A program made the position numbers and the translations under genes. 63,171 nt of DNA from Acidimicrobiia bacterium. GTDB taxonomy: Bacteria > Actinomycetota > Acidimicrobiia > Spongiisociales > UBA5794. The DNA is taken from assembly GCA_030599515.1 (NCBI GenBank), contig JAUVNV010000001.1, forward strand, positions 1 through 63,171, written 5' to 3'. Positions 52,768-58,124 of the stretch are shown piece after piece. The notes under the pieces are model-generated. The model made no database searches. It had not been told where the DNA came from and was given only the letters and a program-made list of their open reading frames with translations. Within the stretch, counting starts at the first letter, position 1. Each line of letters starts with the position of its first letter.

Positions 52768-53442
52768 ATGGCTGATGCACCGACGGAACGCACGCGGGTC
52801 AGGCGCGCCAAGGACAAAGCACGGCATGACCGGGAGATCGTGAACGAGATCTTCGACGAGGCGTTGATCTGCCACGTCGGGTTCGTCGACGACGGTTCAC
52901 CGTTCGTGATCCCGACGATCCACGCCAGGGTCGGTGATGTCCTGTATTTCCACGGCTCTCCCGCGAGTCGCATGCTGCGTCTGATGAAGAACGGCGCCGA
53001 AATCACGATCACCGCAACGCTTCTCGACGGCATCGTCGCTGCACGCTCGGTCTTCCACCACTCGATGCACTACCGGTCCGCAATGATCTTCGGCACGGCG
53101 CGGATCGTCGACGCACGGGAAGAACGCATGATCGCGCTCGAGGCAATCTCGAACGCTGCGCTTCCGGGTCGCTGGGACGAAGCGAGGCTTCCGTCACGCA
53201 ACGAGGACAAGGGCACGCTCGTTGTCGCCGTTGCGATCGAGGAGTACTCGGCCAAGGTGAGCAACAAGGACGTCGGGGACGAAGATGACGACTACGACCT
53301 CCCCATCTGGGCCGGCGTCATCCCCCTGTCGATAGTGGCAGGCTCTCCTGTGCCCGATCACCGTCTGTTGGACGGCGTCGAGCTACCGGATTCGGTGAAG
53401 CAATTCGTGGCCGCCTTCGGCGGCGTAGTCGGTAGTCCGTAG
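52768..53442 (+). CDS. Pyridoxamine 5'-phosphate oxidase-like FMN-binding protein
   Basis: Split-barrel family pattern (CHVGFVDDGSPFVIPT ... YFHGS). The tail VVGSP and the TAG stop are encoded by tract N. Confidence 0.7.
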   Translation: MADAPTERTRVRRAKDKARHDREIVNEIFDEALICHVGFVDDGSPFVIPTIHARVGDVLYFHGSPASRMLRLMKNGAEITITATLLDGIVAARSVFHHSMHYRSAMIFGTARIVDAREERMIALEAISNAALPGRWDEARLPSRNEDKGTLVVAVAIEEYSAKVSNKDVGDEDDDYDLPIWAGVIPLSIVAGSPVPDHRLLDGVELPDSVKQFVAAFGGVVGSP

Positions 53443-53543
53443 TCCGGAGCGGGGTCCGTATCCTGTAGTCCGAGGTCCCTCTTCTTGCTGGCGGCTTGTA
53501 GCTTGCAGCTTGTAGCCCTTGTCTTTCTACTTTCTACTTGCTG
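53425..53543. repeat. Heptad tract N: 17 units (GTAGTCG GTAGTCC GTAGTCC ... CTTGTAG CTTGCAG CTTGTAG CCCTTGT CTTTCTA CTTTCTA CTTGCTG)
   Basis: 119 bp equals 17 x 7 with no register break. Its reverse complement matches tract O module by module. Confidence 0.9.
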
Positions 53544-54324
53544 AATTCACCGAATCGCGCCACTTCAACCACGGGCCTACCGGCTCCAGATCCAGGTCTG
53601 GTCCCGTCACGCCGATCGTGAACTCCGCGACGCCGAGCGTTCGGAAGGCATCTGCCTCATCGAGTTGCGCGGGTTTCACACCGATGGATCGTTCGATGGT
53701 CGAGGCGTCGCGACCAACTCTGGCACCCCACTCGTCGAGTACCTTCGACTTGTGGGCGATCGTTTCGAGATCACCGAAGGTGTGCCACACGTCGGCGTAC
53801 TCCGCAACGATGCGCAGTGTCACCTTCTCACCGCCGCCGCCGATCAGGATCGGGATGTGGCGGGTCGGTGGAGGATCGAGCCGTTCGAGCCGGTCCACGA
53901 TCCGGGGCATGGCAGCGTCGAGATCGCGAAGGCGACTGCCCTTCGTTCCGAAGTCGTAGCCGTACTCGTCGTAGTCCTTCTCGAACCAACCGGACCCGAT
54001 TCCGAGGATCAGTCGACCGCCGGAGATGTGATCGACGGTTCTTGCCATGTCGGCGAGGAGCTCCGGATTGCGATACGAGTTGCAGGTGACGAGTGCGCCG
54101 AAGTGGATTCGTTCCGTCTGCTCGGCCCAGGCCCCGAGCATCGTCCAGCACTCGAAGTGCTTCCCCACGTTGGGATCCGGGTCTCCGCCGTAGAGGGGGT
54201 AGAAGTGATCCCAGTTGTAGACGACGTCGACACCCATCTCCTCGGCTTCCATGACGGCGTCGCGGATGCCGGCGTAGTCGCTGTGCTGGGGATGGATCTG
54301 GACGGCGATTCGGACCGGTTCCAT
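53527..54324 (-). CDS. Luciferase-like monooxygenase (LLM) class F420-dependent oxidoreductase
   Basis: Start at ATG 54324 (MEPVRIAVQIHPQH). LLM TIM-barrel pattern (ILGIGSGW). The tail SASRK and the TAG stop are encoded by the TAGAAAG units of tract N. Confidence 0.8.
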   Translation of the reverse strand: MEPVRIAVQIHPQHSDYAGIRDAVMEAEEMGVDVVYNWDHFYPLYGGDPDPNVGKHFECWTMLGAWAEQTERIHFGALVTCNSYRNPELLADMARTVDHISGGRLILGIGSGWFEKDYDEYGYDFGTKGSRLRDLDAAMPRIVDRLERLDPPPTRHIPILIGGGGEKVTLRIVAEYADVWHTFGDLETIAHKSKVLDEWGARVGRDASTIERSIGVKPAQLDEADAFRTLGVAEFTIGVTGPDLDLEPVGPWLKWRDSVNSASRK

Positions 54325-54403
54325 GGCGCTACCTCCTGGGGCCGTTGCAGGCGAATCGTATCTCCCTCGCGTTCGTTGCACGACGGCCGGTATTCTCGCG
54401 GCC

Positions 54404-55627
54404 ATGGAGATCACGACACGCCCGATCATCGAGGACGAGTCGGTCGCGTTCCGCGAGGCCATCATGATTGGCTTCGGTGAGGACCTCGACGACGAGGAGT
54501 TCCCACCCGAGTGGTTCGCCGACCTCGTCCCTCTGGACCGAACCGTCGCGGCGTTCGAAGGGAACCAGATCGTCGGGACGCTCGCCGGATTCCCCTTCGA
54601 CGTCACCGTTCCCGGGGGTGTGCAGATCCCGATGGCCGGTACGACGATCGTGACGGTCGCGGCCACGCACCGTCGGCGCGGGTTGCTCACCGCGATGATG
54701 CGGGATCATCTCGACGATGGTCGCTCAAGGGGAGAACCGCTCGTCGGACTCTGGGCCTCTGAGAGCCTCATCTACGGGCGCTTCGGGTTCGGCGTCGCCA
54801 CCGAGCGCGAGGAGATCGAGATGGACCAAACCCGCATCTCGGTGGAAGGTGACGCCGGCTTGGTTCGACTCACCACTCCGGAAGAGGCGGGCAAGGTCTT
54901 TCCGGCGCTCTACGACGAGGAGCGCGTGAAGCGCCCGGGGATGCTCAGTCGCGCCGAGAAACGGTGGAAGCGAGAGGTCTTCTTCGATCCGAGTGCCCGA
55001 CGGCGGGGACTCTCGGCACAGCGGTATCTCGTACACGAAACCGAAGGTCGCGCCGACGGGTATGCGATCTATCGGCAGAAGCCGAACTGGGAAGCGGGCT
55101 TCGCGAACGGTGAGGTTCGCATCCGTGAGATCATCGCCACGACGTCTGCCGCGCATACCGGGCTCTGGAGATTCCTCACGACGATCGACCTGTTCCCCCA
55201 GGTCAAGCGGTGGAACCTTCCGGTCGATGATCCGCTGCGTCTAAAGGTCCCGGATCACCGTCGGATCATCCGCAAGCGTTGGGACGCTCTCCACCTCCGG
55301 ATCCTCGACGTCGTTCAGGCGCTGGAGGCCCGGACTTACGCAGCCGACGGCACACTGCGGTTCGCCGTTGACGACCCGTTCATTCCGGAAGCCGGGGGAG
55401 AGTTCGAACTGACCGTGGCCGACGGCGTCGGCCTATGCCATCGCATCGATCGGTCGGGCATCGACCTCACCATGGACACCGTCGATCTCGCGAGCCTCTA
55501 TCTCGGCGGTGGCGACGCCGAAGCGATGGCCATGGCCGGCCGGATGACAGGCAGCGAAGAGTCCGTCAGGAACCTCAACCGAATGTTCCGCGGGGATGTC
55601 GCGCCGTGGTGCGAAGAGGTATTCTGA
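54404..55627 (+). CDS. Eis-like GNAT acetyltransferase with a sterol-carrier-like C-terminal domain
   Basis: About 407 aa. GNAT core (VAATHRRRGLLTAMM), a second GNAT-like domain and an SCP2-like tail. Start at ATG 54404. Confidence 0.75.
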   Translation: MEITTRPIIEDESVAFREAIMIGFGEDLDDEEFPPEWFADLVPLDRTVAAFEGNQIVGTLAGFPFDVTVPGGVQIPMAGTTIVTVAATHRRRGLLTAMMRDHLDDGRSRGEPLVGLWASESLIYGRFGFGVATEREEIEMDQTRISVEGDAGLVRLTTPEEAGKVFPALYDEERVKRPGMLSRAEKRWKREVFFDPSARRRGLSAQRYLVHETEGRADGYAIYRQKPNWEAGFANGEVRIREIIATTSAAHTGLWRFLTTIDLFPQVKRWNLPVDDPLRLKVPDHRRIIRKRWDALHLRILDVVQALEARTYAADGTLRFAVDDPFIPEAGGEFELTVADGVGLCHRIDRSGIDLTMDTVDLASLYLGGGDAEAMAMAGRMTGSEESVRNLNRMFRGDVAPWCEEVF

Positions 55628-57229: not shown

Positions 57230-57259
57230 GGCGCGGTTCCGCCGGTACGCTCTCGTCCC

Positions 57260-57919
57260 ATGCGCATCGTCGTCGCCGACTGCACCGTCAACTACGCGGG
57301 TCGTCTTGCCGCGCACCTGCCACGGGCGACCCGGCTGATCATCATCAAGACCGACGGATCTCTCCTTGTCCACGCCGAAGCGGGCGCCTACAAGCCGTTG
57401 AATTGGATGAACGCTCCGAACCACCTCGTCGAAGAAGATGGGCGCTGGTTCCTCACCAACGGCAAGGGGGAGGAACTCACGATCGATCTTCACGAGATCC
57501 ACATGGACACGACCGTCGAACTCGGTGAAGATCCCGGATTACAGAAGGATGGCGTCGAGTTCGAACTCCAACGACTGCTTGCCGAGCAACCGGAGGCGAT
57601 CGAGGAGGGGATGACGCTGATCCGCCGGGAGTATCCGACACCGGTGGGTCCGGTCGATCTCCTCTGCCGCGACGCTTCGGGGAACACGGTCGCGATCGAG
57701 GTCAAGCGCCGGGGTGAGATCGATGGCGTGGAACAGCTCACCAGGTATCTCGAGTTCCTCAACCGGGACGAACGCCTCGCTCCCGTACGGGGGATCTTCG
57801 TGGCCCAGGCCGTGAAACCCCAAGCAAGAACGCTCGCAGCCGACCGGGACATAGCCTGGGCAGAAGTGGACTATGAAGCGCTCGTCGGACGAGACAGCGA
57901 CATCCTCAGGCTGTTCTGA
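57260..57919 (+). CDS. nucS: Endonuclease NucS (EndoMS, mismatch-specific)
   Basis: 219 aa. N-terminus [16 protein letters not shown] and a RecB-like C-terminal nuclease (DLLCRD ... VAIEVKRR). Confidence 0.92.
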
Positions 57920-57936
57920 CGGCTGCTCCGCAGCCG
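57920..57936 (+). terminator. Hairpin CGGCTGC-TCC-GCAGCCG directly after the nucS stop
   Basis: 7-bp GC stem that starts 1 nt after the TGA. Confidence 0.5.
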
Positions 57937-58124
57937 AGTAGCGGAGTAGCCCAGAGGTGGAAAGTGGAAAGTGGAAAGTAGAAAGTAGAAAGTAGAAAGT
58001 AGAAAGTAGAAAGGCAAGGGCCGCAAGCAAGAATACGGACCTCGGACTACGGGATACGGGATACGGGCCCCGCTACGGACTAGCGAATACCGAGTACGGA
58101 GTACCGACTACGGACTACGGACTA
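57937..58124. repeat. Tract O: 2 octamers (AGTAGCGG AGTAGCCC), a 4-nt linker AGAG (57953-57956), then 24 heptamers in one register (GTGGAAA x3, GTAGAAA x5, ..., TACGGGA x2, ..., CGGACTA/CCGACTA x5)
   Basis: The heptad block is 57957-58124, which is 168 bp or 24 x 7. I verified it unit by unit. Confidence 0.92.

Follow-up and report, generated by a model that had tools for sequence, protein, structure and literature searches.

Do the spacers between convergent genes acquire similar repeat arrays on their own, or can such arrays be copied from one spacer to another? This question is raised by two tracts, N (53425-53543) and O (57937-58124), in a 63 kb stretch of Acidimicrobiia DNA (63,171 nucleotides; contig JAUVNV010000001.1 of assembly GCA_030599515.1), hereafter the window. 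Both tracts, 120-190 bp in length, carry tandem 7-nt units, and an earlier note on this DNA had proposed that they are homologous composite elements rather than the products of independent slippage at each site. Heptamer arrays were described decades ago from the intergenic DNA of cyanobacteria, Beggiatoaceae, and some Actinobacteria, but to our knowledge neither their origin nor their function is established.

Tracts N and O are two paralogs of a single composite repeat

The heptad arrays of N and O were detected both with TRF and in a period-7 autocorrelation scan, and a check against the sequence found every heptad of the earlier description at its place. Read as its reverse complement, N shares with O an ordered series of modules, in which (GTAGAAA)n is followed by RCAAGGG and CCGC(C/A)AGCAAGAA, and then by GGACCTCGGACTAC(A/G)GGATACGG, CCCCGCT(C/A)CGGACTAC, and a terminal (SGACTAC)n. 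Local alignment of the reverse complement of N to O yielded a score of 102, against 14 for the same-strand control. Shuffling of the heptad order, which had been named beforehand as a possible refutation, left this similarity standing: across all seven registers, shuffled versions of O scored 32-35 on average (standard deviation 5-7) and at most 65, and 0 of 3500 reached 102. In the whole window, the 14-mer GGACCTCGGACTAC is present at two places only, one per tract, and the two occurrences are on opposite strands. To compare the two tracts across genomes, syntenic loci were reached through NucS homologues (identities to these loci are nucleotide identities relative to the window). Within one such locus (L018), N and O are identical at 96 of 105 positions (91%; score 165, z about 18), and blastn matches the O tract of L018 to N of the window at 85% over 119 nt. 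Given the shuffles, the shared core, and the identity within L018, the two tracts are homologous as proposed, i.e., paralogs derived from the same composite element. The copy number of their internal units varies, also in line with the proposal: in a locus 99.6% identical to the window (L001), N is shorter by one CTTGCAG unit and O holds additional GTAGAAA units, and differences of several units set L018 apart from the window.

Each tract fills the spacer between two convergent genes (coordinates of all features are given in Table 1). N is flanked by a Pyridox_ox_2 gene (52708-53442, +) and a gene for a luciferase-like monooxygenase (LLM; minus strand, ending at 53527); the neighbors of O are nucS (57260-57919, +) and, on the minus strand, a sigma-70 gene that ends at 58142. 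The tracts are inverted relative to each other and 4.4 kb apart, with an Eis-like GNAT gene and sufB between LLM and nucS; Pfam matches on the L001 and L018 loci bear out this gene content (Bac_luciferase on the minus strand, Acetyltransf_9/17 plus SCP2_2 for the Eis-like GNAT, SufB, and NucS). The arrays are intergenic or overlap only the final codons of neighboring genes. In N, the stop codons of both neighbors lie inside arrays: the third TAG of 53425-53445 is the stop of the plus-strand gene, and LLM uses the second TAG of (GTAGAAA)2. A short GC-rich stem-loop adjoins the stop codon at three gene-facing ends, namely at either end of O and where N meets Pyridox_ox_2; the fourth, the LLM end of N, is without one. 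The limits first drawn around the two homologous tracts were too short in this respect, since the element extends to the stem-loops at 53410-53424 and 58126-58142. These two are counterparts, whose stems differ by two compensatory pair differences (GCCGCC/GGCGGC vs CCGGCC/GGCCGG), and the hairpin of 58126-58142 is found again at the O site of L018 and of another relative, L027. The N stem of L018 reads GCCGCC/GGTGGC, with a G-U pair that is possible only on the gene-sense strand. The unit types comprise GTAGAAA, GTGGAAA, GGACTAC, CGACTAC, GGGATAC, GTACTGA, and GAGTAGCG.

These units are arranged with a strict polarity relative to the flanking genes. All GTAGs lie 5' of all CTACs in 10 out of 10 single composites (8 distinct sites), an order that reverse complementation leaves unchanged, so that both flanks read GTAG inward. 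Each flanking gene thus reads GTAG-type units in sense, which places TAG in all three frames; the right arrays of O (58077-58125), for instance, read GTAGTCC... on the minus strand, in sense to the sigma-70 gene. At least six genes take their stop codon from the first array units (UPF0047, mfd, GGDEF-EAL, Pyridox_ox_2, LLM, and UDG), and as a result their last 2-5 residues are array-encoded; these residues vary between species. From a reading of relatives' sequences, array-encoded, species-specific tails follow the conserved C-termini ..RD[SA]VN of LLM and ..FV of Pyridox_ox_2. The combination of a stop codon, a GC stem-loop with a TTC/TCC loop, and GTAG/GTAC units also occurs at 32109, 34713, and 61335.

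Gain and turnover of the arrays among related genomes

We then compared array content across the syntenic loci. L018 (GCA_030597625.1), at 93.3% identity, carries both N and O, while in the loci at 78-86% identity (L019-L022, L025 of species MAG194, and L027) both sites are occupied by different arrays. At 74-75% identity (L030, from GCA_024762335.1, and L028), both sites are array-free, as is L029 (NucS 77%), in which the NucS|sigma-70 spacer measures 132 bp. No 7/8-nt array was detected in 18-20 kb of L030, L028, and L029, and the N-site, O-site, and UDG|M23 spacers of L030 and L028 span 4-46 bp where the gene pairs exist. Conversely, species at 78-88% identity display 7/8-nt arrays at the N, O, UDG|M23, and mfd sites that are built from differing units, including (GAGTAGCN)n and (AGTCCCC)n at the first three of these sites. 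The presence of arrays at identities of at least 78% and their absence at about 75% show that the arrays are a recent, clade-specific acquisition, whose sites are maintained as the content turns over. The host clade consists of uncultured Actinomycetota with a GC content of about 63%, whose nearest named NucS homologues are from Acidimicrobiia.

Within this clade, the order of events can be partly traced. When the window and L018 are compared, the copies cluster by site, N with N and O with O, which places the duplication before the split between the two. The block of CTACAAG and CTGCAAG units seen in N (53495-53515) is retained as CTGCAAG CTACAAG in the O tract of L018 and is missing from that of the window. 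Differences between strains come in whole 7-nt units, e.g., three full units of (GTACTGA)n in the window and four in L018, and point to replication slippage.

The same neighborhoods differ in gene content as well. Relative to 51241-51981 of the window, L018 (at about 4708-4717) is without about 740 bp of an Aminotran_5 (cysteine desulfurase-like) gene and has in its place a 166-aa open reading frame (ORF) without Pfam match, a difference that may reflect either a deletion or pseudogene formation. Between sufB and nucS, L027 (3946-5208) and L028 (8695-9978) carry a gene for a voltage-gated CLC channel, which is absent from this position in the window, L018, L019-22, and L030; L028 is also without the Pyridox_ox_2 and LLM genes. 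Several assemblies break at the arrays: L001 ends inside O (7370-7429), L026 stops at the hairpin next to nucS, and MAG194 has a stretch of 100 N in place of its O site (L025 3346-3445). Because arrays break short-read assemblies, they are probably under-counted in surveys based on metagenome-assembled genomes (MAGs).

Related composites in the window and in other genomes

N and O had been described as copies of a dispersed element, and this holds in part: the same grammar recurs at unrelated sites of a sister genome, whereas N and O are the only places in the 63-kb window with the complete module order. When one genome per species was scanned with GTAGAAAGTAGAAAGNCAAG, five contigs were matched in MAG194 (GCA_034660035.1), a sister species with 93% identical NucS, and the same grammar was found at its unrelated loci L005, L007, L010, L013, and L017. 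In L005, L010, and L017, (GAGTAGC..) is followed by (GTAGAAA)n, GACAAG, (RGCTGCAAG)n, the core, and (GNNCTAC)n, with a hairpin thereafter in L017, while L013 holds a shorter version with the N/O-type junction ACAAGGGATACAAGCCGCAAGCAAGA. In L005 (1-640; JAYEIJ010000125.1), the composite is part of a higher-order tandem repeat with a period of 160 bp, at least 2.2 copies, and 91% matches, which continues to the edge of the locus. The Ppx|EF-G spacer of another locus (L032) reads (GTAGTCC)3 ... (CTACTTG)3. Beyond N and O, the exact N/O module order was not found in exact-pattern scans, which are a weak test as assemblies break at arrays, and a metagenome-wide exact scan with GCCGCAAGCAAGANTACGGA returned just two chance matches in coding DNA. 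Viral contigs scanned with the core and with the element start gave 0 matches each, i.e., no sign of a phage origin.

Other composites in the window share parts of this organization. The segment at 2899-2922, regarded in the earlier note as a partial third copy of the element, has the (GTAGAAA)nGACAAG module in common with N and O and nothing else of it. Its reverse complement is GTAGAAAGTAGAAAGACAAGACCC, and it pairs with (GTAGAAA)3 at 2860-2881 to form hairpin A (-34.9 kcal/mol, z -6.6). The second-type composite at 12108-12199 has a core resembling that of N (score 35), and aligns over its full length with the N site of L027 (score 57). Together with the composite at 10800-10913, it flanks a DUF222 gene (10998-12110) located between mfd and a ROK kinase gene. 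DUF222 is a family of actinobacterial 13E12-type HNH endonuclease repeats. In the relative L031, mfd adjoins ROK with a 65-bp (GAGTAGCGGAGGGGCC)n spacer only, which identifies the DUF222 gene as an insertion.

Further heptad arrays were also observed. At 32109-32149, (GTACTGA)n switches to its complement (GTACTCAATAC) to give a perfect hairpin of 13 bp (-32.5 kcal/mol, z -6.3). In the spacer at 34713-34809, (GTACTGA/GTACCGA)n is joined by a second inverted pair, GACAGGCAG / CTGTTGCCTGTC. At 41993-42042, (GGCTGTT)4-5 and then (CTCCTTCA)2 lie at the junction of a GH57 glycosidase and a peptidase M3 gene (both on the minus strand), apparently overlapping coding sequence. MAG194 also has another heptad family, in which (ACAGACC)n faces (TGTCTTC)n in long imperfect inverted arrays; a single genome can thus contain several unrelated families of units.

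The scan with the element start also matched hairpins in other phyla. In MAGs of Saprospiraceae, Chitinophagaceae, Bacteroidales, Blastocatellales, and Heliobacteriaceae (L002-L016), (GTAGAAA)n GACAAG lies directly 3' of stop codons, and in L003, L006, and L015 an inverted (CTTTCTAC)n arm follows to form a hairpin (degenerate in L002). The free position before CAAG is an A in 14 of 16 hits, and other GTA-based heptad hairpins are found near these sites. This distribution could be due either to convergence or to a shared reader protein.

Table 1 Features of tracts N and O and of related arrays. Positions refer to the window unless a locus of another genome (L number) is given.
Feature	Position	Strand	Remark
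N stem-loop, GCCGCC-TTC-GGCGGC	53410-53424	+	in last codons of Pyridox_ox_2, directly 5' of GTAG units
N, GTAGTCG GTAGTCC GTAGTCC	53425-53445	+	TAG in all three frames
N core, non-repetitive	53446-53494	-	minus strand reads CCGCCAGCAAGAAGAGGGACCTCGGACTACAGGATACGGACCCCGCTCC
N, CTACAAG CTGCAAG CTACAAG block	53495-53515	-	one unit fewer in L001
N, (GTAGAAA)2 GACAAGGG	53516-53537	-	TAG at 53529-53527 is the LLM stop (ORF ends at 53527)
O stem-loop, CGGCTGC-TCC-GCAGCCG	57920-57936	+	immediately 3' of nucS stop (57917-57919)
O left arrays, GAGTAGCG GAGTAGC, (GTGGAAA)3, (GTAGAAA)5	57936-58012	+	unit counts vary in L001 and L018
O core, GGCAAGGGCCGCAAGCAAGAATACGGACCTCGGACTAC(GGGATAC)2GGGCCCCGCTAC	58013-58076	+	homologous to N core
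O right arrays, GGACTAG CGAATAC CGAGTAC GGAGTAC CGACTAC (GGACTAC)2	58077-58125	+	
O stem-loop, ACCGGCC-TTC-GGCCGGT	58126-58142	-	abuts sigma-70 stop (minus-strand ORF ending at 58142)
Hairpin A, (GTAGAAA)3 ... CTTGTC(TTTCTAC)2	2860-2922	+	UPF0047 stop in left arm
Composite 3' of mfd stop, (GCGGAGTN)7 GGGACTCTTCG (CCGACTA)7	10800-10913	+	GTAG first, CTAC last
Second-type composite, GAGTAGTCG (AGTCSCC)n - CCAGCAAGAGGAAACCTTCA - (CCGGATA)3 CCGACTAC	12108-12199	+	
Array-borne stop codons	2868-2870, 10806-10808, 23926-23928, 53440-53442, 53527-53529, about 61362-61364		
Cross-phylum (GTAGAAA)n GACAAG, examples	L003 5476-5540, L006 7752-7869, L015 5899-6017		
(ACAGACC)n/(TGTCTTC)n sites	L017 6379-6538 and 1-135; L005 7495-7585		

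Known counterparts, origin, and possible role

Intergenic arrays of directly repeated heptamers include the cyanobacterial STRR and the TAACTGA arrays of Beggiatoaceae, Cyanobacteria, and Bacteroidetes (PMC4679880), and an excess of heptanucleotide simple sequence repeats has been summarized for some Actinobacteria, Burkholderia, and Xanthomonas (PMC4679880, PMC4692102). The tracts studied here resemble STRR and TAACTGA arrays in that their tandem 7-nt units are intergenic, of several types per spacer, and lineage-restricted, with near-identical mosaic spacers at different loci that are absent from the same neighborhood of the closest relatives and in which contigs break. Unlike the TAACTGA arrays, however, their units are GTAG/GTAC-based and GC-richer (none is TAACTGA), and they lie mainly at gene 3' ends, whereas the TAACTGA arrays of BOGUAY are mainly found upstream of start codons. 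The inward GTAG polarity, the conserved non-repetitive core, the flanking stem-loops, and the uncultured actinobacterial host further distinguish them from STRR and TAACTGA arrays alike. A literature search yielded nothing specific on the exact repeat strings or on actinobacterial heptamer arrays.

Among other bacterial repeats, REP units are imperfect palindromes of 20-40 nt with a GT(A/G)G tetranucleotide directly 5' of the stem, and REPIN doublets are mobilized by RAYT transposases, whose genes often have REPs on their flanks. Like BIME/REP elements, N and O are extragenic, 3' of genes or between convergent genes, and form modular mosaics of conserved order and variable copy number, with GTAG facing inward from both ends; REP hairpins can also stabilize or terminate transcripts. 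Unlike REP, the units here are non-palindromic heptads with a small hairpin 5' of GTAG, and no RAYT (Y1 transposase, PF01797) was identified among the 20 window proteins scanned or the annotated loci of relatives. The pneumococcal BOX element of Firmicutes, boxA-(boxB)n-boxC with modules of 45-59 bp, folds into a long stem. It is likewise a composite intergenic element with a fixed module order and an internal module that expands and contracts, but it has no 7-nt periodicity; BOX-like dispersal here amounts to two N/O-type sites and partial relatives at 12108-12199 and in L013. MIRU minisatellites of Mycobacterium tuberculosis have units of 40-100 bp between co-directional operon genes. They share with N and O an actinobacterial host, an intergenic tandem structure, stops and reading frames interlocked with flanking gene ends, and a strain-variable copy number, and differ from these heptad mosaics, which lie between convergent genes. 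Overall, the distinctive features here are the GTAG-phased units, the strict inward polarity, the embedded stops of flanking genes, and a datable clade-level onset.

Taken together, these comparisons suggest that N and O probably belong to a clade-specific family of mosaic 7/8-nt-array spacers that spread by copying and grew by slippage. Such a family would have colonized the DNA immediately 3' of genes in a single, young clade of uncultured Actinomycetota. In sister species the orthologous spacers contain unrelated arrays, whereas two non-orthologous spacers in one genome are about 90% alike, which indicates that sequence was copied between sites within a lineage, before the window/L018 split. 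We infer that the second copy most likely arose through non-reciprocal copying (gene conversion or template switching) between neighboring spacers, which would have been seeded by the GTAG/CTAC arrays and hairpins common to many spacers; a dedicated transposase seems the less likely route. As for a role, the stem-loops would mark transcript ends. Each slip of +/-7 nt shifts the frame, and stop-bearing units would end slipped or read-through frames within three units, so that presumably only stop-bearing units are tolerated beside coding DNA. The element may conceivably act in this way as a 3'-end insulator.

Several observations weigh against one or another part of this reading. A terminator scan of 53200-58400 found 0 sites. 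The hairpins are without U-tracts, and GTAG heptads rather than the T-runs of intrinsic terminators follow the GC stem-loops. Several interior units are stop-less (GTGGAAA, GGGATAC, CTGCAAG, and GTACTCN as read from minus-strand genes), and when unit types are compared it is GTA rather than TAG that is best conserved. With respect to selection, N differs between the window and L018 at 4 of 112 positions (3.6%), vs 11.5% at third codon positions (p = 0.003), but O differs at 15 of 127 (11.8%) and other intergenic spacers at 0 to 23%; O is thus not unusually conserved, and there is no clear sign of selection on the interior. A homogenization of N and O in L027, matched first by eye, was rejected when their formal similarity proved weak (score 35, z 2.8), and this locus shows that homogenization within a genome is not general. 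Finally, a transposase may be encoded outside the scanned proteins and loci.

This last point bears on the alternative of a mobile non-autonomous element, either a miniature inverted-repeat transposable element (MITE) or of REP/REPIN type, moved by an enzyme encoded elsewhere. A RAYT-like HUH transposase that recognizes GTAG beside a hairpin would be one such enzyme, with the arrays as by-products of cleavage and rejoining. The occurrence of the family at non-orthologous sites in several species, its sudden appearance in one clade, the GTAG/CTAC polarity as in REPIN doublets with hairpins adjoining GTAG, and the amplification of the composite in MAG194 as a 160-bp higher-order repeat are all consistent with it. 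Still, we consider it unlikely, because scans of 20 window proteins and the annotated loci of relatives revealed neither a transposase nor an integrase or reverse transcriptase, and no terminal inverted repeats (TIRs) or target-site duplications are apparent on reading the N and O flanks. Copy boundaries instead dissolve into arrays of unequal unit number with no TIR in common, and, relative to the array-free L030, the entire spacer is replaced without a recognizable duplication. Likewise, the hairpin lies 5' of GTAG here (53410-53424, then 53425; on the minus strand 58142-58126, then GTAG) and 3' in REP, the units are not palindromic, and the exact-pattern scans, weak as they are, returned no further N/O-type copy. 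Independent slippage from a shared pool of favored heptads (GTAGAAA, GGACTAC, and others) fares far worse. The same units do occur at many sites, even in other phyla, and orthologous sites of sister species gained different arrays. However, heptad-order shuffling abolishes the similarity, a non-repetitive core of about 50 nt is shared whose exact 14-mer is found nowhere else in the window, and the L018 copies are 91% identical. Together, these results already refute this reading, which we regard as very improbable.

It is also hardly credible that the two copies serve as recombination substrates that flip the 4.4-kb LLM-GNAT-sufB-nucS segment as a genomic switch. The copies do have an inverted arrangement, a length of about 110 nt, an identity of 78-91%, and a distance of 4.4 kb between them, and the earlier note had raised recombination between them, but this was not borne out. 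No inversion of the segment was seen in ten related loci (L001, L018, L019-L022, L025, L027, L028, and L030): the gene order and orientation LLM(-)/GNAT(+)/SufB(+)/NucS(+) are the same throughout, as is the orientation to both flanks. Repeat-free genomes share this orientation, which is thus ancestral, and nothing in the segment resembles an invertible promoter or a switched gene. A structured non-coding RNA or a protein-binding RNA/DNA platform, for example for a cold-shock-domain protein taking one heptad each on the pyrimidine-rich strand (CTTGTCTTTCTAC...), would agree with the strong purine/pyrimidine strand asymmetry and strict 7-nt phasing, with the conservation of N between the window and L018, and with the (GTAGAAA)nGACAAG junction in several phyla, with an A at the free position. 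A precedent is CspB of B. subtilis, which binds heptamers, one protein each (PMC4679880). This alternative appears quite improbable nonetheless. Rfam 15 at gathering threshold identified two tRNAs only in the window, and no match at E <= 1 in 53350-53620 and 57880-58200. N folds no better than shuffled sequences on either strand (z about -0.7), and the stability of O (z -2.3 to -3.3) comes from its terminal hairpins alone, so that a structured RNA was rejected; in addition, interior modules are swapped wholesale between species. A promoter consensus scan found nothing, and a small hairpin or Shine-Dalgarno-like role of the core (GCAAGAAGRGG..CTTC) was likewise rejected, as its pairing is inconsistent among copies and no start codon lies downstream.

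Beyond the copying and slippage that we favor, a bolder reading can be entertained, although we hold it to be rather unlikely. A clade-specific copying process that is still active would install and homogenize mosaic GTAG-heptad modules exactly at stop codons, where arrays would serve as frame-independent bidirectional insulators of translation and of transcript ends, or as phased platforms to which a heptad-reading protein binds. This might involve an unrecognized activity, either HUH/RAYT-like or one of template switching, that was acquired when the clade arose, and the near-identical (GTAGAAA)nGACAAG hairpin arms 3' of stop codons in MAGs of Bacteroidota, Acidobacteriota, and Firmicutes would reflect a shared trans-acting reader rather than chance.

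The clade offers a clean natural experiment, in which spacers of a few to about 46 bp at about 75% identity can be set against arrays at 78% and above, at the same gene ends. Comparative genomics could look for the gene whose gain or loss set the process going, and simple reporters could reveal if the inward-facing units with their stops, and the hairpins, influence translation and the ends of transcripts.

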